Shown in pieces: positions 608-27,107 of a DNA stretch of 41,944 bases; position 1 is the first letter of the stretch; each line of letters starts with the position of its first letter. A program made the position numbers and the translations under genes. The notes beneath the pieces were generated by a model. It worked only from the letters and a program-made list of their open reading frames with translations, was not told the DNA's origin and did no database searches. Source of the DNA: Asterionella formosa. Lineage: Eukaryota. The DNA is taken from NCBI GenBank assembly GCA_002256025.1, contig NKIB01014630.1:1-41944 (forward strand), written 5' to 3'.

Positions 608-935
608 AAGTTAGTATGTTTTATAGCCCATTCGTACTCCCCTCTTTCAAGGCAAGTATTTCATTGTGCTACCTGCCAACAAGACCGGTGCTTCCCTAGT
701 TTTATTAGCGTATGTGAGTCCCCAACCACCTTTCGCGAAGGGTGATCGTCTTAGCTGCAGCGTTAGGGGAAACTCCGACTGGCTAGGGAAGGCGGCACAA
801 GCTGCTTGTAGGAGGCCAACCCACTAAAGGAGTGAGGGAGTCGAACCCAAAAATTGCTTCTCAAAAAATTACGGGAATCAAATCTCACTACCTCAGATCA
901 AAGGCAATGTACTAAACCACTAATCCATTCGTGAC
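608..935 (-). mobile_element. tRNA-derived SINE-like element, family A, second copy
   Basis: Colinear with 25904-26271 but lacks the 40 bp at 26123-26162. A-box-like TGGATTAGTGG and B-box GGGTTCGACTCCC. No clear TSD. Confidence 0.8.
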
Positions 936-1941: not shown

Positions 1942-3136
1942 ATGCTCTGGTGACAGACCGGAATTATTCGTCTTGTGTGATGAGCCATTTCGTTTTAATT
2001 GGATTTCTTTTCAAGCTCTTAACAGATTGCATAGTACGAACATACTGTGCAATGTAGATGATGATTCATTGAAGACATATGATGACTTGAATGATGAATG
2101 AAGATTTTATCACAAACACTTGTTCTTCTCGATATGGCTGCTTTGCTGTTGTTGCAATAATCAGAGTGAGGACTGGAGAGGATGATGAGCCAAACCACAT
2201 TGCTTTAACTGGTCCATTATCCTACCAAGAAATTTAAATAAAGGAATCTAAAAGAAACAATACATATAATAATTAAATTTCCATAATCAAAAGGGTTACT
2301 ATTTGAATTACAAGGGCATTTATCAAAATTATTAGATGATATAACGAAAAATTATGATCAGATGATCATAATCCTATGATGCATCATAGAAATATGATGG
2401 TTTTTATTTGCAGACAAAGGGGTCAAGGGGAAGTGTTAGATGAAGTCTATTGGTGGAACGAATTTTTCTAGACAAGCTCATCAGTACATGTTGGCTTAAC
2501 ATGTCATGCCATTGACTCTGGCCAATTCAATCTGCATTACAGCATGCAGAAGGGCTGGACATTGTTGACTGAATCAAAAATTGAATGAGTTGGGGGCATC
2601 AACATATGCAATGAAATTCACAGGGAAAACATACAGGCTGTGCCCAAAGAGGCTGTGTGCAGTGCAACAAGGTCCAAAAAGGTCATACATGGTGCAAATT
2701 ATGAAATTAATTCCAGAATGCCTTCAAAACTGACACATGCTTCTCTGTCCATCATATTATCGTCTTCTTTGTGTGCCCTAAGGTGATCATGTTGTTACAT
2801 CCAGGGAGGTCTTGAGGGTTCCGTAAATTTATGTAAAGGCTTTTAGGTTGAGCATTTGCACCAGTTGTGCATTTTCTCAGTATATCTATGTTACTACATA
2901 CCAGCCAGTATTAAAATTTACTGCGCATTGAAAAACACATTGATACAATATTTTTCTTTTGATTTATTTCAACCGAGATTTAGTAAATCATTAATGGACT
3001 TGTCAAACATCGCCCCATGTAGCATCCAACAAAGTATTCATCAAACTGTTGTAAAGTTTCCTGTTATTGCAATTCTAAAGGTAGAGTCCAGCCATAATCA
3101 GCAACAAAGCAACAATTGGCTTGCTTTTCTTTGTAT

Positions 3137-4792
3137 TTAGGCGAAGATACGCTTTTCTGCATCAGAGTTGACAATGTCGTCAAGGAGCACCTGGAAGTCT
3201 TCCGAGGTAATTGACTTCAGGTCCTCAACAGTGCAAAAACCACCATTCACTCCTTGAATAGCAAATCGCTCGAAAGTTCGGATAGCAGAGTTCATACGAG
3301 CACGGTCCATGGCATTGCGAACGGTACGGGCATTGGAGAAGAAAGGAAGTTCCATACGCTTCTCAATGTATTGCTTGAAGGTGGCATATGCTTTCTCGTC
3401 AATGTCGTATTCCAAATCTCGGGCCATGACAGAGGCGATCTCAACAAGCTCATCGGCAGAGTAGTTAGGGAAGTCAATGTGGTTACCGATACGGGACATC
3501 ATACCAGGGATATAGGAGAAGAACTTGTCCATACGGTCTTTGTAACCGGCAACTGCAACAACAAGATCATCTTGGTTGTTCTCCATAACGTTGAGAAGAA
3601 TCTCAATCGATTCCTGACCATAATCACGGTCATTGGCAGCGTTGTAGAGGTAGTAAGCTTCGTCGACAAGGAGCACTCCTCCCATCGCCTTCTTGATCAT
3701 CTCCTTGGTCTTTGGGGCGGTGTGTCCAACATACTGGCCGACAAGGTCATCACGTGTGGCAAGGACAACGTGACCACGACGGGAGTATCCCATCTTGGCA
3801 AGAATTTGACCCATACGCACCGCCACAGTAGTCTTTCCGGTTCCAGGAGCTCCGGTGAAGGACATGTGGAGCGATGGGACAGCGGTCTCGAAGCCAAGCT
3901 TACGACGCATCTTGTCAAGGACTAGCAGGGCTGCGATTTCCTTAACACGCTTCTTGACCGGGATAAGTCCAACGAGGTCGTTATCAAGCTTGTCAAGTTG
4001 CTCTTGGACCCCCTCCTTGAACATGAACTCATCAACTACATGTGTAGAAACGAAATGTCAGAAAGAGTCGGTAATCCAAGAACAATAGTGACACTGCTGA
4101 AGTATTGAAAGGTCACCATTAACTATTGACTTACCAGTACCAGCGGGAGTAGAATCAGGCATATTGGTCATGTAATCAATCTTCTTTTGACGCTCCTCTC
4201 GGCGCATTTCTGCGGCGCGTTCACGTTGCTCCGCGGCCTCTCTGGACTTTCTGCGTTCGGTATCAGCCTCTTGCAAAGCCGAACTGAGCTTAACGTAGTT
4301 GGAGTTGTTGGGATCCGTACCTCCTTGATATTCCAAAGATTTGGTTCCGAAAGGGTTCATGTTTGCGCCATAGAGACTGGTGGAAAGCTGCAGAGCAAGA
4401 ACATGAAGAGGAATGTGGTGAGGACAGGAAGAAAACAACGAGCGAAGGATGTCTCGACAGGGGAGCAATCAATTAAATTTGACCTGCACAAGAATCCTGG
4501 GTGGAACTCCGCGTGTTGCGCAGAAATGCAAAGGACAAAGATAGCGCTATAAAAAGGGTGATTCTTTGTTTTCGACGGCGACGACGGCTGAATTCTGAAA
4601 TGGATATCCATCTTGATTTCGGCCTATTGCTGTGTTTTTTCGTCCAGACTGACAATGCTTCGTACACAGCTCTGATATTACCATTTGCTGGTTGAACCGT
4701 CGAATGTAACTCACACGAGCTGCTTGCCCAGCAGGGCTGAAAGCCGAGCTAGAAGCAAGGAAGAAAGCAGAAACGGCGGCGGTGAACTTCAT
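3137..4792 (-). CDS. cbbX: Nuclear-encoded, plastid-targeted CbbX (red-type Rubisco activase, AAA+ ATPase); 3 exons
   Basis: Exons 4792-4715, 4387-4135 and 4035-3137; GT-AG introns 4714-4388 (GTGAGT..CAG) and 4134-4036 (GTAAGT..TAG) splice in frame. Walker A GAPGTGKT, RDDLVGQYVGHTAPKT, Walker B LLVDEAY, NDRDYGQE and FSNARTVRN are CbbX hallmarks. The N-terminus MKFTAAVSAFFLASSSA-FSP is a diatom-type bipartite presequence. Confidence 0.96.
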
Positions 4793-5160: not shown

Positions 5161-7191
5161 TAGAGCTACTGGTATCATATGCATATCCTCATGATTTCGT
5201 CGACTAAACAAACGCACATCAACGAAATTTGGACCTACAACGTACGTACGCCGATCACCCAAGAACAATGCATCTGCCTCATTTGCTGTGGTGCTACATC
5301 ATGATAACCTGGTAGTTGCTTCAGCTTATTTCAGGGCCATTCTTATCATAATGTCATTGGGCAACATTGGTGTATTATCTCCGCAATAGGATACAAAAAT
5401 GACTGTTTGTATCATATTTTGGTATCACCACCGGGATTTTAGGGCTGTTCATATCATTTTTCATTGTGTATCACAAAATTGAAATTTTTTGAAAAAGTAT
5501 GAGCAACAGTAACTTGATTTGAACTGAATTTCATTCATTCCAAACTTGGCACTGTATCACAGTGTATCATGGTGTAACATGGATCATTAGCAGCAACAGG
5601 CCAGCTATGAGCATCTAAAAATATCTGAGCCGTAAATATGCATAGGCCTATGCATAGCCTAAATAAAAATAGCCAGAATATAATAACATATATATCATGT
5701 AACAGAGTCTGTGTATACATGCTACTAGTACCAGTACTGGTGGGAGACTTGTCCTCAGCATGTTGTTAACACATTGACCATGTTGATAATTGGCCATGGC
5801 TTGATCAAGTTGCTGCACCTTTGAAGTCTAATATGTCATTGTATGAACAATGCAATAGAGAAATAAATATAGATATGTCTTTAAAATTGCGTAGAAATTA
5901 CGAATCTACGATGTAAAAGAATATTCGTCAATTTTTAGGAATACAAATAGACGACCTATGGAATTGTTCCAGCAACACGATTACAGCTATAACTACTAAT
6001 ATGGCTAAAACAATACTATCATAGGACAAAAGGGCTTGCAAAAGTGGTATGAAGCTAGAATTTCAATTAAAGATGCTACTAAATCAATCGATTGGTGCAC
6101 CAGTGGTGTTTTCATGTTGCGCTGTGATGCTGATGTTGATTTCGGCACTGTCATGTTTACAGTTATTTTATCAGTGCTATCAATTATAGTGAGGACAACG
6201 ATAGCGACAACGACAACGACAGCAACAGCAATTTTGATGTCAAAAAAATTTATTAATGAAGAAGAAAAGACTCATGGCAACCACGACATGGACTCTGAGA
6301 AAAAGAAAAAAACCGGATGAAACAGAAGAACACGAAGAAGACCCTTACTTGTTCTTAATTCGCACACTAGCAGTGATGAGGATGACAAATCATTGCAACT
6401 TCCTATTGTAAAGAAGGCAAGAAAAAAAGAAGTCTACAGTTGCAAAATCAAATCCCCCAAGTAGTGTCATTTTTGGCTACACATATTTTTGTGTTATCAT
6501 TGTGTACATGTGTTCGAAACACAGAGGTGATCATGTATTGATGCTTGGCCAGCCTGCAACTATGGTCGAACTGGATACAAGAAAATTCAGGCACAAATAC
6601 ATTTTTGATCGACTCATAACTAAATCTTAGATGATGATGGTGATGACTGCAATGCTCTTGCCTTTTCACAAGACCCTCATTGGGATCAAGTGTTAATGCA
6701 GCGAAAATAAAAGTGCTGCGGTCTTCAGCAGCACCCAGACGCAAAAAGAGATCCTTCATGTTTTCGTTCTTTATAAAAGTCGTCTTAAGACTGCTCGGAA
6801 GGAATTGGAAGAGTTGGAAGATCGTGGCTGACGATGACTCCGAAAATTCTGATGAAATTCAGGCTCAGCTAGAAATTAAGATATTCAAGAAAAAGGGGGA
6901 TCACTATTTTCATCTGCTTTCAGAAGCTGAAATATCACATTAAATCCAAGTAGTGAATAAACTATTTAAAGGTCTACATTAAATTAATTTCATGTAATTC
7001 TTTTCTCCTCCTCTCTATATTGACATGAGTTCATTGCAAGCCCATGGTTTGCAATCTGGTAAGAAAAAAATCTGTCATAACATAGCTTCTAGGCATTACA
7101 CACAATGGTTCCACAGTTGGTACGAAGCCCCAACCAAGGGGTTGTGATGAGTCGACAAGGATTATTTCAGCAAATATTTGATTATTATCCA

Positions 7192-7412
7192 GTGGAATAG
7201 CTTAGTTGGTAAGCTCAGCTTTAAAGATGGCGGGGTCGATTCCCGCATTCTACACCTGCTTTGTTTATGTTGGTAGTCCCTTGGGTTTCAGTTGGTGAGG
7301 CAGACAACAAGCAGGTCTTAGGCCCTCTGGGGGGCCAAGTGCAACTTCACAACCTTCACAATTGTCAAGTTCTTTAACAATAGCGTAGTACTTTAAAAAT
7401 TACTTAATAATT
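7192..7412 (+). mobile_element. tRNA-derived SINE-like element, family B, copy with TSD
   Basis: A-box TAGCTTAGTTGGT, B-box GGGTCGATTCCC and an AT-rich tail. Flanked by TATTTGATTATTATCCA (7175-7191) and TATTTGATTATCGTCCA (7413-7429), a 15/17 match. Confidence 0.82.
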
Positions 7413-7519
7413 TATTTGATTATCGTCCATAATCTCGTTATCGATTTTCTTCTCATTAATAACGTTATTGTGAAGTCGAGCATTGATTCAAGAACCAGTG
7501 CAGATTTTTCCAAGCTTTT

Positions 7520-15803: not shown

Positions 15804-17597
15804 TTTTGCTACACAACAACTTGCATTTCGCTTCTATCTGCCTTCACTTACCACAAATTGAGGACGAGGTAACTGATGCATATTTCTGTAGAAGAATGTG
15901 TCGGTCGAAGATTGAATGAGAAGCAAAGTATCGATCAATAAATGGGCTCCAACACTGCTGTTTGTAACTTACAAATACTGTTTGTCTACCATTATCCTGA
16001 AAGAAGCAACACACATGTGTCAGTTTTTCTAACAGTTGTGGATTGATCCAAAGATGGCTGATAGGCAGCACTTACCGATTTCTTTTGTCCACATTGATGG
16101 TTGACCAGCCACCAAATCGAAAAGGAGCTATTGAATCACTGAGAGGGGCGGGACGAGTCATTCTGTATTTGTTATCCCAGCAATTGATCATCTTGGCATT
16201 TGCTCTTGACAAACCGTGATGCTATGCACAGCTTGTTGATTCCGCCCTTCTCTATCATTTTCACTCATTCTTAGCCGCATGGTGTATCATCGTGTTGTAT
16301 TGTCACTTCAGTTTTTCGCATCGTCATGTGTTGCTTGAGATCCTTCATTTGAGGAAGTGGATGCAGCATGACAAGGAACATGAAAGGCATCTGCTCTTGA
16401 TTTACCATCAATTGATTCCGCCCTTCTCTTCTAAGCCACAAGTATCATTGTGCTTTATTATCACTTTCGTTTTCCGCATCATCATCTGTGTTAATCCTTC
16501 AAATCCGGAGCAAAGTGTATGCATGACAAGGAACATGAAAACATGATTTCAAATGTTTCAGCCATGAATACATATATACAAAGATTTGTAAGAAGTTTAA
16601 ATGTATACATAGTTGAACATTTGCATAGCTTTAAACACGCTCATTATACGGCACATCCTGTGTATACTAATATCAATTTTGATTATACATAGTTGAAATA
16701 TATACAATGCATGATGAGTTCATAGTTTTCCACGACCTGTTGAGTTTGTCAATTCTTGTACCTACAAGTCAGTGGCTGATTTAATTAAGCCCCTTAATAA
16801 ACGGGAGTCATCACCAATTTTTCAAATGGTCGAAATCATACATTTATGTATATAGACATATTGACCAAAATTCATATGGCCTACCGGTAGTACTGTATAA
16901 TTGCTGGTAATTACTTCTATCATGGAAATACCACAATAGTGCAACGGAAAACTGAATATGCTCATGTGTTTAGGATCATTTGATCATTTTTTTAAGATCA
17001 ATTAATCCTGATTCTTGAAAATAAATTTTGATCTTTCATTTTCTCATTAACGACACCGTTCATCATATGATCAATATGTTATGATTAAAGTTATAGGATA
17101 AACAAATCTAAATTCATTGATTAAAGATCATAGTTTATACCGGAGTAGTTGCTCATGCATGCAATCCCTTCCAACCCCTGTATACAGTCCGGAAGTGATA
17201 AATCCCAAGCTACCAAATTTTTATGTCTTGTAAGAATTATCGCAGCATGCATGCATACATGACTCCTACTGGTATACTATACAATGCGGAAATGATGACC
17301 AACAGACTACCAATCCTATAGGTCCTGTAGAATTATAGCAACATGGCTGCATATCTAATGAAAGGGCGGAAGGAGTCATCCATGCACATGTATAGCATGA
17401 AATATGGAAATGATCAAATACAGCTAGTCTACACAAGGAGCAGTGCATCATATATGCCCTGTTTTTTTAATTCCTATGAAATCTCTTGATCTGTTCTGCG
17501 CTTTTTCGCCACAATTGTTTTCATTGGCTGTTTCACTGGACAGTGTTCGAATTGATTGTGCTTTGAACGAAGCAATGATCAAAGTCCACCCCATACG

Positions 17598-17770
17598 ATT
17601 GCCAATAAATAAGATACACAGATAACAATCTTTAGCTTTTTTGATCTTACTTTTAACATGAATATATCTTACTACCAAAACAATTACACATCATACTTTC
17701 TGGTTAGATATGATTGCCATTAAATAAGATCACAAATAACAACTTTTAGCTCGCTTGATCTTACTTTTAA
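17598..17770. repeat. Two-copy direct repeat of about 58 bp
   Basis: GATTGCCA(A/T)TAAATAAGAT..ATAACAA..TTTAGCT..TTGATCTTACTTTTAA at about 17598 and about 17713. Confidence 0.8.
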
Positions 17771-17787
17771 ATTAAGTACGAGGTGAC

Positions 17788-18035
17788 AATAGACATCAAT
17801 GTCACCTTGTTTGTACGAGAACAACGTGTTATTGCGTCGCCTCCATCAGCAATAAATACCAATGTCATCACCTTATCTGTGCAAGAACGTGCTGTAGCCT
17901 GAGTACAAGGTGACATGGATACCAATGTCACCTTGTTTGTACGAGAAAGTGTTATTGCGTCACCTTCATCACCAACAGATACCAATGCCACATTGTTGTA
18001 CAACTACGTGATATTGCGTACCCTCAATCACCTTA
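17788..18035. repeat. Tandem repeat, unit about 60-67 bp, 4 degenerate copies
   Basis: Recurring ATACCAATGTCACC..TGTACGAGAA..GTGTTATTGCGTC. Confidence 0.8.
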
Positions 18036-18061
18036 AGATATACCAAAGTAACTACCTAATC

Positions 18062-18322
18062 CTATCCCTATCATGGGCATGATCAAATTCAAATCAATCG
18101 TACACGTAGTACATTTACATACAAATATCTGTGCAACATACCGGTATATAGGTATCACTATGATGGACATGATTTAAATTCAAATCAATCGTATACTGGC
18201 ACATACGTTTACATGCAAAAATATGTCTGCTGCATATATAGGTATCCCTTTGATGGGCATGATTTAAATTCAAATCAATCGTGTACATACATTTACATAC
18301 AAAAATATCTGTGCAACATATT
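18062..18322. repeat. Tandem repeat, unit about 90 bp, 3 copies
   Basis: Recurring TATCCCT..ATGGGCATGAT..AAATTCAAATCAATCGT..CATTTACATAC..ATATCTGTGCAACATA. Confidence 0.88.
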
Positions 18323-18730
18323 GGTACTAGTACAATAGATGATACAATAGACAGTAGTAATACCTGGTACCAGTACTCACACAACAGTTGACTCGCACAT
18401 GCATATCTATCATGTCTTCTGAACTATTGATTGCTACAGCAGATATGTACATATACCCATGTATGACTGTCCTACTCATGCAACACCAAGAATGATTCAA
18501 ATTCAGATTGACGGGTTGTTGATGTTTGCAGCCAGTGATGGTATACATGCAAAAATTCATGTATCAATATATATATATATACATATAATATTCTCTATGA
18601 CAATAATTATTATTCATATTAGATGATAAATCGAATTTATATGATCATATGATTGCCATTGTAAGATGCATCACACAAATTAAATGTTTTCTATTTGCAA
18701 ACGTTAGATACATAGGTAACTTTCAAATAG

Positions 18731-18889
18731 CATCAGTATATTGCTTCTGGCGAGAAACTGCAGAAAGGAACTTCGCTTTTTTTACTATGCCAATTAAACA
18801 GATTTCCCCCAAACTTTCGAGTCTTTTTAGCATAGTTAAAAAACCGAAGTTCCTTTCTGCAGTTTCTGACCAGATCCTATATACTGATG
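18731..18889. repeat. Long inverted repeat (60-bp arms, ~39-nt spacer)
   Basis: 18731-18790 versus the reverse complement of 18830-18889, with a perfect core AGAAACTGCAGAAAGGAACTTCG / CGAAGTTCCTTTCTGCAGTTTCT. Confidence 0.92.
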
Positions 18890-19696
18890 ATATATTGAGT
18901 GGACCTACACCCCTACTTTTTCCGAAGACTGTATTTAAGCATATGGACCACAGGCCAATGCCCCGACAGGTAGGGCAGACTGTGTACTGGTCAAGACTGG
19001 GGCTGCACACAGGTTTTGAGTGAGTGAAAGTCTCACACTACCTCACCCAGGTGAAGGGGCATGCCTCACCAGACACCAGGTCACTAATGGATGACGGGGT
19101 GCCTCAAAAACATCCCTGAGTACGTTCGAATCCTCCCATGATGCCCCCCAAGGACTCCACATCGATGGGGCGGGCGGGCAAAGTGGCCGGATAGGTTTTC
19201 TCCTAGTGCCTTGGAACGACAGCCAAAACAAAAAAACCCATTTTTTTAGCATATATGGAAAGGGTGTCTATTGGTGAAAGCTCCGTTGAGCGTTATACAT
19301 TTGATTTATATGTGGAAAGTACGTGTTTGATTAGTCTGACTCAATTATACTTAATAAACCCTACCTCGAGCTAGGGGTTCAAATGCAGCAACTTTAAGTA
19401 CCGGTAATTCACACGGTATCGTTGTTAGCTCCTAAAGATTCTCAATTCTAACGAAATTCCACAACCCTACCAGTACACACATAACATGATAGGGAATTCT
19501 TTTATTTTGCCTACCGGTCGCCTATAACTAGGAGTGGTCAAATCCAGGAACTTAAATTAAATCAAGATAACAAGTGCACAGAGAAATCGAATGATAGTAC
19601 GGTAGTTGGCCACCTTTCAAAAGGATACTTGGTACCTGCCTTGGCTTCCTTCATTTGTGTTATGTCTCCTTCGTTGTAAACTATAAGAAAAGAGCA

Positions 19697-22156
19697 ATGT
19701 GCAACTTTCGATGTCAACAAAGATTATTATTTTTTGCTTTGAAAGTGGCGCTTTCGTGTTGTTTCCGAGTAAGCCGCAGCAAATTCATGTTGTCCCTTCC
19801 AGCCTTTTCCGCACGTCGTGCCACGTTCCAACGAGGGGACCCATATGAAGATCAAAATAACCGAATATCTAGCCAGATATTATGCGTCAGGTTGAAATCC
19901 AGCACTTTCAGCGATCAAGAATTAGGAGTTTTACCGTCGGGAGGAGGAGATCGCGATTGGTACACGAGTCGCATTGCGTCAATCAAGGCCTACAACTTAG
20001 CTGGTGTTGTGAGCGAAGGCGCCGATAAGATCATTTCGATAGACTTCGGGGATTTCCCAAATCTTGTAGCTGTAACTGGTGAAACCGGGAGTGGCAAAAG
20101 CCTCCTCATTGCGAAGTTGGCTGATTTGGTAACTGGTGGCAAAGCCACAGCTTCTTTGCTGCCGACGTTAGGGGATGACAATGTTGTCATTGCGGAAATG
20201 GGTAAGAATAATTTTTGCACGCAGGATGCTCAAAACATATTACTCCTGTCAACTGATGATGAAATTTTTACAGAAATAGCGTTAAGCCAACCTCATCTGT
20301 CTCACGTGCAAACCTCGTTCGAGAACATTGGCCTTGATCCGTCACATTTTCTTGACCCCACATCAACAGCAGCTACCCTAAAACTGAGACGAGTTCTTTC
20401 TTTAGCAGGACCATCCATGAAAGGAGGAAAATCAAGGCTTAAGTCTATCTGCGAAATTAATGGAAGACCGGTTTCATTGAAGGATTTGAAGGCTGTGGCT
20501 TCTCCTCTTGTTGCTATTGTCGATGCATCGGCCGCGGCTACCGCTTTAGCAAAACCAAATTCCCGCATGGCGATTATTGACGCTGCAGTTTCTCCTAATG
20601 TTTTGGAAGAAGCAAGAAGAACGCAAGTAGAGTACAAGCGGCGGCGTGAGCAAAGGGAGAAATTGGAGAACGAAGTTGCGAATATGGCACTTCCGCCTTC
20701 GCTCTCTGGGGATGGCGAACAAGATCTCGAACTATTAAAGCACTGGGTAGATGAGTTAGATCATTTTCAGGGAAGGATGAATCAGTTTAGTGACGCTTTG
20801 GACCAGTTGCCAAAGTCGGAGGATTCGTTTGGTGATGCAGTTCGCACTCTTTCTGCTTTGTCTTGGTTCGACATTGCTGACACTGATTCATTTTCCTCTC
20901 TAATGTACATACACCTACTCGACTTTCGAGAAGCATTGAAATCTTTGGATTCACAACTTGATTCAGCAAGAATGGCTTTTGAAAAGCTTGCTTCGTTGTC
21001 TTCCACTGAATCTGCCATGACCGCTGTTGACCGTGCCAGAAACCATTTATTCGATGTTACTGCAAACGAGAATCCAGATGGAAGGTTTTCATTGTCTGCC
21101 GAAATATCCCACGATTTACTTAACCAGGTCGAAGAAAAACTACGGGATTGTCTGAAATCTCTTGAGGATGAGAGAATCGGATTGCTGACCATGCTAGAAA
21201 ATACTCGGGACAAAGTTGTATACAACGTCGGAGATATTGACACTATCATCGCGGATTGGAATTCATTAGCTCGAAAGCATGGCATGTCGCCTTACGCACT
21301 GCCTTCTTGTCATGCAGCACTTCAAAGTGAACTAAATGGAAACGTGGAAGCTAGAATGTTGCTCCCAAAAGCCATTGCTCAGGAAGGGGTTGCTCTCACC
21401 GCGTTTAAAAATGCATGCATAGCTCTTTCGACGGAAAGACAAAAAATTGGAAAAAAACTTTCTGTCTCGGTCACAAAACGAATGCCATTGTTAGGATTAG
21501 AAGGATCCAAGTTTGAAGTACAGACTTCCACTGGTGTTCGCCGCTGTGAAGATGCCAGTTGTTACGCCAGTTCAACCGTTGTAGGTTTTGATGCAGTTGA
21601 TTTTTTGTTGCTTCATGAAGTGGATAGTGCGATCGAGGAGCAGCAATCAAGGGGCGGAAAAATAGAGGTTGTGGCCAGCTCGGGTGAGAAGGCTCGGTTG
21701 CTTCTTGCTATAGAGTGCGAGCATCCCGGATCAATAGGTGCGTCTTGTGGCATTAGCATTGAGAATGACGCTACTGCAACGAGGAAAGCGTACCCACCAG
21801 TTTCTTTGATCTATGATGAGATTGATGCTCATGTGGGTGGGCGAGCAGCAGTGGCTATGGGCAACATGTTAGTAGATCAATCTCGAAAACGAAATGGGTC
21901 AGGAGCAAGAGGGCAAATTATCAGTATTACGCACAGCCCATCTGTTGCAGCAATCGCAGATGTTCACTTGGTGATTCAAAAGCAAAGCAATAGGATCGGA
22001 GAGCAAAGCGTTTCGGTCGTTACCGCTTTTGTAGAAGGGACAGAGCGACGCAAAGAACTCGCTAGAATGGCTTCTGGTGACCTAGCCCCAGAGGAAGCAG
22101 AAGCTTTCGCCCAAGCTCTCCTTCGCGACGCAGCAAAGCGACGGAGCAACAACTAG
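19697..22156 (+). CDS. recN: RecN-like SMC-family DNA repair ATPase, probably organelle-targeted
   Basis: Walker A VTGETGSGKS, central coiled coil with LARKHG, signature VASSGE, Walker B/D-loop LIYDEIDAHVGG, H-loop ITHSPSVAA and C-terminal ERRKELARMASG. Probable 72-nt intron at 20202-20273. Start is ATG 19697 or 19787. Confidence 0.9.
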   Translation: MCNFRCQQRLLFFALKVALSCCFRVSRSKFMLSLPAFSARRATFQRGDPYEDQNNRISSQILCVRLKSSTFSDQELGVLPSGGGDRDWYTSRIASIKAYNLAGVVSEGADKIISIDFGDFPNLVAVTGETGSGKSLLIAKLADLVTGGKATASLLPTLGDDNVVIAEMGKNNFCTQDAQNILLLSTDDEIFTEIALSQPHLSHVQTSFENIGLDPSHFLDPTSTAATLKLRRVLSLAGPSMKGGKSRLKSICEINGRPVSLKDLKAVASPLVAIVDASAAATALAKPNSRMAIIDAAVSPNVLEEARRTQVEYKRRREQREKLENEVANMALPPSLSGDGEQDLELLKHWVDELDHFQGRMNQFSDALDQLPKSEDSFGDAVRTLSALSWFDIADTDSFSSLMYIHLLDFREALKSLDSQLDSARMAFEKLASLSSTESAMTAVDRARNHLFDVTANENPDGRFSLSAEISHDLLNQVEEKLRDCLKSLEDERIGLLTMLENTRDKVVYNVGDIDTIIADWNSLARKHGMSPYALPSCHAALQSELNGNVEARMLLPKAIAQEGVALTAFKNACIALSTERQKIGKKLSVSVTKRMPLLGLEGSKFEVQTSTGVRRCEDASCYASSTVVGFDAVDFLLLHEVDSAIEEQQSRGGKIEVVASSGEKARLLLAIECEHPGSIGASCGISIENDATATRKAYPPVSLIYDEIDAHVGGRAAVAMGNMLVDQSRKRNGSGARGQIISITHSPSVAAIADVHLVIQKQSNRIGEQSVSVVTAFVEGTERRKELARMASGDLAPEEAEAFAQALLRDAAKRRSNN

Positions 22157-22493
22157 GGTATTACTAGCCGTTATACCGGTATTGCCACTTTTAAATTATT
22201 TTTTACGTGTATTATTATAGAAGGGCATTGTCCCTCGATGTCAGCGCGATTCAAACTCTTACACGGTATCGTGAAATGACGACAACGATGCACGAGTACA
22301 TCACTGGAAAGGCGCCCTCTATTGGTACTCAATTGCAGAAATCACACAATATGGCCGTCAATCTTTGGGTGGGTCTAGCAATTCGGCAAGGCTATGACAA
22401 CAAAAACGTCACTTTACGTTAGGCTACAAACACATTCTTCAAACGTGGACAGATACGTAAGCCCCTGTTGGCAATCAACAGCTTAGGATGATC

Positions 22494-23982
22494 CTACTTT
22501 GATTTCAAGGCCTTGTTCAATTGGTCGGTTGCATATTCAGCCAATTTTAAAGCTTCGATGCCAACGGTAATTGTCGCAACACCTTCAGGGCCCTCACTCC
22601 TGGAATCCAATGTAGCATTCACAACTCGATCCTTGAGTTCTTTATAGTCATCTGACTGAACCAAGAAGTAAGGCATCATTTGAGGATCCTTAGCCACTTT
22701 TTCGTCTATCAGAGCAGCAGTTTCTGGGTCGGGATAATCAAATCTCTTGACTTCCTTGCCAAGGACATCCTTGACCACTGCAAAACTAACGTTTCCTCCG
22801 CATCGATCCGCCATTAAGGACACATTAGTGCCAGCTTTTGTGGTTATCTTGAAGGCTACCCGTGAAAAATCAACAATGTACTCAGGATTGGGTAAGGACG
22901 TTCCTGGCTTCCATATACTGACCTGTTCGGAAAAGAGCTTGTCTGTATTGACCTTGAACTTTTCAATATTGTCGACTGTGACTTGAAAAAACATTACCAG
23001 CAGAGCCAATTCATGGATCGCCATGTTCTTTAGCATTCCCTCCGAGTTTCTCGCAAATACTTCGGGAATATCAGATGTGCTGTATGAGTTGTTGTGACAG
23101 AAGAATACATGGGAATTAGGAGTCTCGCGTGCAACCTTAATGGTGTTCAGGACGTAAGGGGTCACGTTCTTATTGTATCCCAAATACACCTTGACATTCT
23201 TTTCTTCCGCCAGCGTTCGCATGTCTTCCAATTCCTTAACAGTGGGAGCACCCGGTTTTTCAAGATAAATAACTTGGGCGCCCCTTTCCACGCACTGACG
23301 AAAGAGTTCAGGATTCTCGGCCGTCCTGCCGGCAATCAAACACATGGTAGGCTTAGTAAATACAGATAGGTCATCTACAGACTTTTTAGTCTCAATACCC
23401 ATTGCTTCTAGAGAATGCGTGAGTTCGAGGAAAACGGCTGGGGGTTCGGGGCATAGCTTTTCATTCATGAAAAAGGGCTCAACAACTGCTGTGACATTTA
23501 CTCTACTCATTTCCAACAATTGTGTCAAATGATACCAACCCATACCCTTAACGGTTTTCAAAAGGAGAAGTGAGAAATTTTTTGCTATTTAGTTCGCAAG
23601 GCAAATGCACAATCCACGATGAACAAAAGTGATAAAAGCGTTGGCCTACCTTCTTCGGGAGGCCGCATCCCACGACAACAACATCTAGTGTTCCATCAGT
23701 ATCTGGTCGATTTCCTCTCTGTTTCTTCACCACCAATTTCTGAGAATTCAAGAGGAATCCACCTATACCCGCAGCCACCAATAAGGTAACAATGTAGAAG
23801 AGCGTCTTGTTGATCTCAAGGCCGAAAATGACCACCAATTTGCTCAGTCTCAGGGCCTCTGCTTCTGCACGTTGTCGCTCGCGTTTCTTTCTACCGAAGG
23901 GGTCAAATGCTTCGGCAGCAAGCAATAGCTGCAAAGTCAACAAGAGGGTGAAGCAAAGCCTGGTCAGAAAGTCTCGAGCCAT
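22494..23982 (-). CDS. Gfo/Idh/MocA-family NAD(P)-dependent oxidoreductase with an N-terminal signal peptide and a transmembrane segment; 2 exons
   Basis: Exons 23982-23650 and 23546-22494; intron 23649-23547 (GTAGGC..AAG) gives the Rossmann-like motif VVVVGCGLPKKGMGWYH. YLEKP, VYLGYNK and KNMAIHE motifs are present. Confidence 0.88.
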
Positions 23983-25128: not shown

Positions 25129-26644
25129 CACAGGGAACAAAAATGCCCTTTATTGGAATCCATTACAAAGTGAAAAAGATTTTACTAAAACAAGGATAAC
25201 CTTGTATTGCTTGGCTAGCCGTGTAATAAGTGTTGTGAATCCGTGCTCTCACCAGCCAATTCAAGGAAATAGGCACTTTCCGATACAAGATAATTTCAAA
25301 AATAATCCTCCCATACAATATAGGGATAGTTTCTCTGAAATATGGTTTAGTCCAATACAAGGTGTACCTTCTTGTATTTGTTTTTACTAAATTCTCATCA
25401 ATCTTAGTACTTTGTATTGATAAACCAATCAGATCACTAGTTCTGATTTAAGGTCTACCTTTTGGAGTACCTTGATTTGGACCCAATAACTCACTATCAG
25501 GAAAATCATTTTAAGGTTCTTTATAGCAAACTAATATCTACAATACTATATTCGTTTATAAATGTTAAAGTTATTATGCTATTTTAAGAAGAAATGCAAA
25601 CATTATGGAGTCCTATAGCAATATTGATTTTCTAGAAGTGTTGGAATCATCTGTTGGTTCTCAAATCCCAGCTTTGCCTTCATCGTAATTCACCACTTTA
25701 CCAGTCAAACAAAATTGGAGCGCTGAGAAAGATATTTACATCTGTTACCTGCCTTGTATTGGGACATGAAGTAGTACAGCCAAAACACAATACAGAGGCA
25801 ACCTTGAATTGCAAATTTTTTCACCTTCTATTGAGATGTGACACATTGCCAACAAAACACAATACGATCGCAAACTTGAATTGCAAAGTATTGTCACCTT
25901 GAAAAGATAGTATGTTTTATAGCCCATTCATACTCCCCTATTTCTAGGCAAGTATTTCATTATGCTACCTGCTGACAAGACTTGTGCTCCCTACTTTTTT
26001 AGCGTAGGTGAGTCCCCAACCACCTTTCACCAAATGTGATTGTCTTAGCCGCAGCGTTAGGGGAAACTCCGACCGCCTAGGAAGGCGGGGATACAAGCTG
26101 CTTGTAAGGGGGCAACCCACTATTTCTTGCACACCAAGCAAGGCAAGACCGCGCGGGACAGTAAGGAGTGTGAGAGTCGAATCCAACAATTGCTTCTCAA
26201 AAAATTGCGGGAATTGAACCTCAGGACCTCAGATCAAAGGCAACGTGCTTAATCACTAAGCTATTCCCTACATTGTCACCTTGAATTGTGACTAGGCTAG
26301 CTAGACCTTTTATTAGATATAAAGGGAAAACCTTGTCTTGGGTGATATTTCCTAGTAGCCAAATAACGGATCACCTTGAATTGGAGTGACGCCTGCAGTT
26401 GCTTGTTTTCACCTTGTACTACTGGAATTGACATACCAGCCTTTCGCCAACACAAGGTGAAAATTGTATTATTCTCTTCTATTGGAAATACATTAAATGA
26501 CCAATACCTTCTTGTATTGGACAATGTTGTGATGCCCAATACAGGGTATGCCTGGATTTGAAAGACGAAAACCAGTTGAAAACATCCAAAAAATGAAAAC
26601 ATCCAAAAAATTTCCAATACAACAAGGTAATCTTGTTTCCAGTG
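25129..26644. mobile_element. Non-autonomous CACTA/CMC-like element with subterminal motif arrays; hosts a SINE A insertion
   Basis: Left end CACAGGGAACAAAAATGCCCTTTATTGGAA versus reverse complement of the right end CACTGGAAACAAGATTACCTTGTTGTATTGGAA. Many CCTTGTATTG/CAATACAAGG and CACCTTGAATTG motifs in both orientations. The TSD is not clean. Confidence 0.55.
25904..26271 (-). mobile_element. tRNA-derived SINE-like element, family A, copy with TSD
   Basis: Minus-strand head GGGAATAGCTTAGTGATTAAGCACGTTGCCTTTGATCTGAGGTCCTGAGGTTCAATTCCC has an A-box and B-box, with a second B-box-like GGATTCGACTCTC. Exact 14-bp flanking direct repeat ATTGTCACCTTGAA at 25890-25903 and 26272-26285. Second copy at 608-935. 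Confidence 0.85.
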
Positions 26645-26884
26645 TTTATACATTGCTGGAGCAATGGGTAACTATAAGTAACCCGGGGCTTGGAATGACT
26701 GTGACAACACATTACCTGATGGTACCTCCTTGTACCATGGCACTCCCACCATTAGCACCCTAAATTCGCCAAGCTGAGCTCATTTTTGCAAGAATGTCTC
26801 CGACTTCAGGTAAGTTCATAGGCTGGTACCTTTAGACATTGTGGTAAAAGACGGTTCTTACTATAAGGAACACACATCTCAGAA

Positions 26885-27107
26885 GAATGGCTTAATTGGT
26901 TAGCACACATCATGAGGTGGAGGGTTCGATTCCTGCATTCTCCACCTGTCTATCTTTTATGAAGTTCCTAGGGTTTCAGGGGGTGAGGTTGACAAAGAGA
27001 CAGGTTCCAATGTACCGTACAAGCGAAAAAACCGGTACTAATTGTTTCCATTCAAGTGTGAACAAGCGAGATAATTGGATAGCTTTAACATACTTTAAAA
27101 TTTAATT
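26885..27107 (+). mobile_element. SINE-like family B, diverged third copy or subfamily
   Basis: A-box TGGCTTAATTGGT and canonical B-box GGTTCGATTCC, with the shared core CATTCTCCACCTG..GGGTTTCAG..GGTGAGG..CAGGT. The 3' half has diverged but ends in a similar TACTTTAAAA tail. Confidence 0.65.

Follow-up and report, generated by a model that had tools for sequence, protein, structure and literature searches.

A short, dispersed non-coding repeat in the diatom Asterionella formosa and its likely identity as a tRNA-type SINE

The contig NKIB01014630.1 of Asterionella formosa (assembly GCA_002256025.1, positions 1 to 41,944; the whole of this stretch is hereafter called the window) contains a 368-bp sequence which is held between two exact copies of a 14-mer, ATTGTCACCTTGAA. 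The question which this locus raises is whether the sequence is a mobile element and, if so, to which class it belongs and by what means it was inserted. An earlier note, made from the letters of the sequence, had proposed a short interspersed element (SINE) with a tRNA-like head, a highly structured body and a partner LINE. As set out below, the sequence (copy A) is in our judgement likely to be one copy of a short, non-coding, high-copy tRNA-type SINE family, here termed family A, of which the minus strand is the sense strand. The features on which the discussion draws are collected in Table 1.

Table 1. Coordinates of copy A, its parts and its flanking repeats, and of copy B, within the window.
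Feature	Position	Strand	Basis
Copy B, older family A copy, 40-nt deletion	608-935	-	repeat alignment
Target-site duplication, 3'-end side of element (minus-strand sense)	25890-25903		exact 14-mer ATTGTCACCTTGAA
Family A SINE copy A (likely), 368 bp	25904-26271	- (taken as sense)	window copy, metagenome copies and contig depth
3' tail ending ...CATACTATCTT	25904-25945	-	conserved in 3 full copies
Degenerate 18-nt palindromic hairpin in body	26021-26038		majority letters restore palindrome
Second B-box-like motif	26173-26183	-	9/11 consensus positions in copy A
Run of six T, then G, directly after head	26199-26204	-	T6 to T8 in 6/6 copies
tRNA-like head (minus-strand nt 1-67)	26205-26271	-	boxes and collinearity with second family
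B-box-like GGTTCAATTCC	+26220-26210	-	10/11 consensus positions in copy A
A-box-like TAGCTTAGTGA	+26263-26253	-	10/11 consensus positions in copy A
Target-site duplication, 5'-end side of element	26272-26285		exact 14-mer ATTGTCACCTTGAA

Copies, ends and flanking duplications

The 14-mer has two exact occurrences in the 41,944-base window, and these directly abut the two ends of copy A, such that the 368-bp interval between exact 14-bp repeats described in the earlier note is borne out. Two matches of this 14-mer were reached in 0/100 dinucleotide-preserving shuffles of the window. The second copy which the note had placed at 608-935 is likewise present, but diverged; it is 77% identical to copy A by BLAST over 366 aligned columns, the 40-nt gap included, with a mean column identity of 86% in the alignment. 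When both copies were compared by BLAST with the window, no further family A copies besides these two were found. The sole frame in copy A runs to 87 amino acids from stop to stop and is disrupted in copy B by the 40-nt deletion; family A has no conserved reading frame. Nor were terminal inverted repeats found, the termini on the minus strand being AGGGAAT... and ...ATCTT, and there is neither poly(A) nor a simple repeat at the 3' end, the missing poly(A) having been remarked upon before. Bases 26270-26271 are two extras private to copy A, lying between the 5' end of the family and the duplication.

Beyond the window, a search with an 18-mer from the head matched 17 metagenome loci, 4 of which hold copies of family A, the other 13 sharing with the head a stretch of 18-24 nt or less. 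The same 18-mer had no match in viral contigs and met seven prokaryote genome loci, every match being of 18-24 nt only, and a 20-nt pattern from the tail had no match in metagenome contigs or in viral contigs. One of the four metagenome copies (L013, element at 534-917) is full, such that the lengths of the full copies are 368 bp (copy A), 328 bp (copy B) and 384 bp (L013); the other three (L010, L011 and L002) are cut by contig ends. Both L010 (1-3127) and L002 (1-2092) are low-coverage marine metagenome contigs in which a family A fragment is fused to prokaryote- or phage-like genes, these being a DnaB helicase and DUF6291 in L010, and a glycosyltransferase 2 and a gluconate 2-dehydrogenase subunit 3 in L002. 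The opening string of L010 is presumably the end of a sequencing adapter. These two contigs are probably chimeric assemblies, and their flanks were left out of the analysis because of this appearance.

The flanks of L013 (516-533 and 918-935) match at 16/18 positions, and this 18-bp duplication is unrelated in sequence to the 14-mer of the window. A single scoring rule, applied also to 1000 position pairs drawn at random from the window as a null, gave 14 for copy A and 11 for L013, the maximum of the null being 7; copy B, with a score of 0, lies within the null range and has no detectable duplication. Significant duplications are therefore found in two of the three full copies, and they differ in length and in sequence. 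Both of them end in AA on the plus strand.

The dispersal of the family is seen most clearly in public sequencing runs, 20 of which, mostly freshwater metagenomes, contain parts of this locus; no RNA run is listed among them. Contigs of four runs (X2, X7, X8 and X16) were aligned to 25300-26900 at 80% likeness, giving 1529, 947, 937 and 122 aligned contigs, respectively, the majority of which lie on the element. The summed contig depth in X2, which is no copy number, amounts to 16,176-55,727 across the seven bins of the element and to 88-188 in the adjoining bins, and the depths of the two contigs that come from this locus itself are 68 and 72. Since summed depth is not a count of copies, the expression 'hundreds of copy-equivalents' which we use for family A is a rough reading only. 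Within the element, the head is deeper (35,886-55,727) than the tail (16,176-22,902), which is the opposite of what 5' truncation would predict. In likeness to copy A, the X2 contigs fall into bands of 84 at 99% or above, 245 at 95-99%, 565 at 90-95% and 635 below 90%, from which it follows that most copies of family A are old.

The same contigs place the ends of the family. Loose ends, where likeness to the window stops, accumulate at 25902 (48 contigs in X2, 30 in X7 and 33 in X8) and at 26269 (38, 26 and 22 contigs, respectively). Beyond these loose ends the consensus of the flanks agrees at 0.41-0.43 only, and the flanks are therefore unrelated from copy to copy, albeit with left flanks that end A-rich in the consensus. 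The family's own ends, as defined at other loci, thus coincide with the inner edges of both 14-mers. In X2, 26 further contigs have their loose end at 26249; they mark a subfamily which has an insertion in the region of the A box, like L013. As is the case for SINEs, then, the copies of family A are dispersed, with fixed ends and unrelated flanks. At the locus itself, one contig (X7 record 17) bridges the left junction and two (X2 record 16 and X8 record 31) bridge the right junction, each with at least 31 letters on either side, and their flanks differ from the window by 0.3-3%; the insertion site is filled in other runs, which carry slightly different strains. None of the 15 joints listed (of 81 in all) skips 25904-26285, as an empty site would, and none of the contigs listed spans the whole element.

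The tRNA-like head and the T run that follows it

A and B boxes are the consensus motifs of type-2 promoters of RNA polymerase III (Pol III). In the majority sequence of six copies, which starts AGGGAATGGCTTAGTGG..., the A box is exact and stands at aligned position 9, which is about +7 or +8 when counted on the element proper; two B boxes, likewise exact, stand at aligned positions 52 and 90, the first of these at ~+51. The two tandem B-box-like motifs described in the earlier note can accordingly be seen in copy A and are exact in the family majority. Among individual copies, L010 agrees with the consensus throughout all three boxes, L011 in the A box and in the second of the B boxes, and copy B in the second B box. 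The B boxes of copy A are restored by the majority letters of the contigs, which have C for T at 26215 and 26182 and G for A at 26173. In a count over 94,756 bases, which took in the window and loci L001-L017 on both strands, exact A and B pairs on one strand at promoter spacing occur only in family A copies, namely L010 and L011. Family A thus has what is expected of a SINE in this regard, namely an internal Pol III promoter whose A and B boxes lie close to the 5' end and are spaced as in a tRNA, and the 5' end of the family is the first base of the head in five of the six copies.

Whether the head is a recognisable tRNA is a different matter. ARAGORN found no tRNA in the window nor in the 17 metagenome loci, such that the head 18-mer led to no parent tRNA gene. 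At its default and 90% thresholds the program called a tRNA in 0/6 copies and none in the majority sequence, and at an 80% threshold it returned the discordant anticodons Gly-GCC, Leu-TAG and Ala-AGC. Rfam, searched to an E-value of 10, gave no tRNA match on any family A copy, and the minimum-free-energy folds of the head contain no cloverleaf. The head is therefore called tRNA-like without a recognised fold, on the grounds of its promoter boxes and of its collinearity with a second repeat family (see below). Of the tRNA-like minus-strand head which had been proposed, the loop CTTTGAT and the boxes are there to be seen and a tRNA call by ARAGORN or Rfam is not; the more specific ancestry in tRNA-Gln(TTG), for which canonical spacing is the sole basis, could not be confirmed, no tool calling a tRNA and the anticodons at the 80% threshold being inconsistent.

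The second short repeat family lies on the plus strand of the window at 7192-7413, 26882-~27105 and 30097-~30325. The copies at 7192 and 30097 are 81% alike and the copy at 26882 shares the first ~120 nt only; by eye, and unscored, the copy at 7192 stands between 16-mers matching at 14/16 positions (7176-7191 and about 7414-7429). The Rfam tRNA model (RF00005) is matched over its full length by the head at 7192-7254, with 23 bits (E 0.012) against a gathering score of 29; the head at 26882-26944 reaches 14.7 bits (E 2.5). The heads of family A align collinearly with those of this second family, the acceptor 5' half, the D arm and the T loop being common to both families and the anticodon region being longer in family A. 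On a hand-drawn cloverleaf, 71.9% of cells are paired across the alignment as against 44.5-64.8% with slid partners, and the T stem is paired in 55% of cells; the covariation of this cloverleaf over both families is not significant, its score being reached by 212/500 shuffles. The two families also meet in L011, in which the 31 nt of 157-187 resemble the 3' tail of the 26882 type (87%) and adjoin the head end of a family A copy, an arrangement which may be a SINE-in-SINE insertion.

An unusual feature of family A is the T run between its head and body, in that six to eight T are a canonical Pol III terminator. The run, followed by G, is kept in all six copies, so family A does not have the terminator-free interior expected of a SINE. 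In the alignment its counterpart in the second family is the acceptor 3' half, and in RNA the run could pair by G-U pairs with the 5' AGGGAAU, such that an acceptor-like stem would be kept. Some SINEs do have internal runs of 4-5 T, all of which, in the part of the source available, are followed by C, favouring read-through (PMC4758252). One reading of the run in family A, which we put forward as a rather doubtful one, is that it is the fossil of a pre-tRNA 3' trailer, captured at the birth of the family by a template switch; on this same speculative reading the reverse transcriptase would have passed from a LINE-derived RNA to a primary Pol III transcript.

Body, 3' tail and the question of a partner element

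The short stems listed for the body in the earlier note are all present in the sequence of copy A. The description of the body as highly structured did not hold up, however, there being no excess of folding over shuffled sequence. The minimum free energy of copy A has a z-score of -1.02 on the minus strand and -1.45 on the plus strand, most of the L013 element (533-912) has one of -1.75, and the covariation term for three copies folded as a consensus is 0.03, with compensatory changes in 3 of 97 predicted pairs. The hairpin at 26021-26038 is of some interest in that the majority letters of the contigs at 26029, 26031 and 26035 restore the 18-nt palindrome; copy B has a palindrome of the same kind one position off, and L013 keeps one pair of the hairpin by a double change. 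Overall, the hairpin has no statistical support.

With respect to the 3' tail, comparison with the tails of the second family gave no significant similarity (p 0.06-0.87 over 9 pairs, with an end coordinate for the 30097 copy that lies ~20 nt beyond the element). A LINE partner, which the note had supposed, is without support here, and so is an origin of the stems in a LINE. A scan of 39 open reading frames of the window, comprising 10 chosen of the 14 frames of at least 150 amino acids and 29 of the 77 stop-to-stop frames of at least 85 amino acids, brought up neither a reverse transcriptase nor an endonuclease domain; likewise, none was found in the six open reading frames of L010 and L002. 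The window itself is eukaryotic in its genes, which encode a COG7 protein, a CLC channel, a mitochondrial carrier and a sigma-70 region 3 protein, and one lead from a protein atlas points to a diatom host. It also contains, at 19598-22156 on the plus strand, an 852-amino-acid open frame with no Pfam family above threshold and with faint P-loop hints (E 0.006).

Mode of insertion, alternatives and relation to known SINEs

Taken together, the fixed ends of the family, the variable duplications, the promoter boxes, the lack of inverted repeats and the A-rich left flanks lead us to a SINE which was probably inserted by target-primed reverse transcription, as had been proposed in the earlier note. 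In such a scheme, transcription by Pol III would begin with the first base of the head, and a non-LTR element would supply the reverse transcriptase and endonuclease by which the RNA is copied into the genome. The target would be nicked behind an ...AA able to pair with the 3'-terminal UU of the RNA, and a second, staggered nick would give rise to the duplication of 14-18 bp. The two extra bases of copy A at the head junction may then reflect untidy 5' joining, of a kind that is typical of target-primed reverse transcription.

The T run bears directly on the first step of this scheme. Pol III would be expected to stop at six to eight T, after ~70 nt, and it can be supposed on these grounds that the element is instead a LINE-mobilised short retroposon in which the tRNA-like head is a passenger, the template having come from Pol II or from read-through transcription. 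The retention of the run with its following G in every copy speaks for this, as do the decay of the cloverleaf, of which little more than half of the T-stem cells (55%) are paired, and the shorter, C-followed runs of those other SINEs in the available part of PMC4758252. Against it stands the fixed 5' end, which coincides with the first base of the head in 5/6 copies and in the loose ends of 64 X2 contigs (26269 and 26249); this fits an internal promoter that sets the start. Moreover, the stems have decayed and yet the majority sequence keeps exact A and B boxes, as if these had been under selection. On balance a passenger head seems to us unlikely, and a Pol III-transcribed SINE is preferred.

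Two further explanations dispense with a SINE altogether, and both appear highly improbable. An element which is short, non-coding, high in copy number and found in AT-rich target sites might be a non-autonomous DNA transposon (MITE-like) or a solo LTR, and yet it has no terminal inverted repeats, and its duplications of 14 and 18 bp differ in sequence and are longer and more variable than either would give, DNA transposon duplications being fixed at 2-10 bp and those of LTR elements at 4-6 bp. A MITE is disfavoured by the lack of a terminal inverted repeat together with these duplications, and a solo LTR, which would have TG...CA termini, by the termini of family A and the same two duplications. 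It could also be, with a similarly very small likelihood, that the two 14-mers are part of a periodic host repeat and no insertion scar at all. Indeed, the target DNA of copy A (25732-25839 and 26488-26595) is a moderately repeated element with the motif CACCTTGAA, in which the summed X2 depth is 2,063-3,339 and 826-1,381, respectively, as against about 70-400 nearby. The flanks are themselves repeated in that 25781-25827 resembles 25853-25900 at 83%, making a local 72-bp duplication, and a 60-bp tandem array of a related motif is found at 17787-18032. The objection that the 14-mer might occur twice in uninterrupted host sequence was examined in the neighbouring paralogous unit, which contains the counterpart of the 14-mer once only and continues for six bases like the right flank of the insertion. 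This arrangement lends weak support to an insertion, 10/500 controls with a random right flank scoring as well. A stronger argument against a host repeat is that the family ends, defined elsewhere, coincide exactly with the inner edges of both 14-mers.

As a SINE, family A can be compared with known elements. SINEs are under about 700 bp in length and have no coding capacity, and their 3' tails are A-rich, are made of a simple repeat or are shared with a partner LINE. In its non-coding length of ~330-385 bp, its 5' A and B boxes, its fixed 5' end, its variable duplications of 14-18 bp and its high-copy dispersal, family A is like the tRNA-derived SINEs (SINE2). It differs from them in a head too decayed for a tRNA call by ARAGORN or Rfam, in the run of T6-8 that separates head from body, in an additional exact B box lying ~38 nt downstream of the other, and in a 3' end of ...CTT without poly(A) or a simple repeat. 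With respect to the T run, the closest likenesses are the mollusc Vhc and Snail SINEs and the crocodilian SINEU, which also have potential internal Pol III terminators, although, as given in the available part of that source, these are of 4-5 T followed by C, whereas family A has 6-8 T followed by G (PMC4758252).

Among stramenopiles, the infSINE families of the oomycete Phytophthora infestans are non-autonomous with an internal Pol III promoter, one of them, infSINEm, having 32 copies (PMC3429519, as far as the part available goes), and they are like family A in class and promoter type, the comparison being one of descriptions only. Putative SINEs have been annotated in diatoms, namely in Phaeodactylum tricornutum (Phatr3), Cyclotella cryptica, Skeletonema costatum and Pleurosigma, and these probably belong to the same class of element; in the portions of the reports available they are pipeline calls without described anatomy, and can be set beside family A by description only. 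Thus, in excerpts of the respective papers, P. tricornutum has 13 putative SINE copies over 1,454 bp (PMC5859163), putative SINEs make up 0.2% of a diatom genome (PMC8147415), and in C. cryptica SINEs made their first appearance with assembly version 2 (PMC7466962). Against these annotations, sparse as they appear in the same excerpts, family A reaches hundreds of copy-equivalents, in the rough sense of summed contig depth. The accessible portions of the literature, supplementary tables aside, contain no described anatomy of a diatom SINE, and it is plausible that family A is undescribed.

What the finding offers is chiefly of use to diatom genomics, for which its value is moderate. Family A would be a concrete SINE for the annotation of diatom genomes, would offer presence/absence markers for strains, and would be a handle on which non-LTR element is active. 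Knowledge of how SINEs work is left unchanged by it, and for transposon biology its value is low unless the internal T run matters. In this last regard, were the run indeed a fossil trailer, the family would have reached hundreds of copies in spite of a canonical terminator inside it, and then either the Pol III of diatoms would have to read through six to eight T or the SINE would be mobilised from transcripts of some other origin than Pol III. The internal T run, conserved as it is, offers a simple test of the termination rules of Pol III in diatoms.
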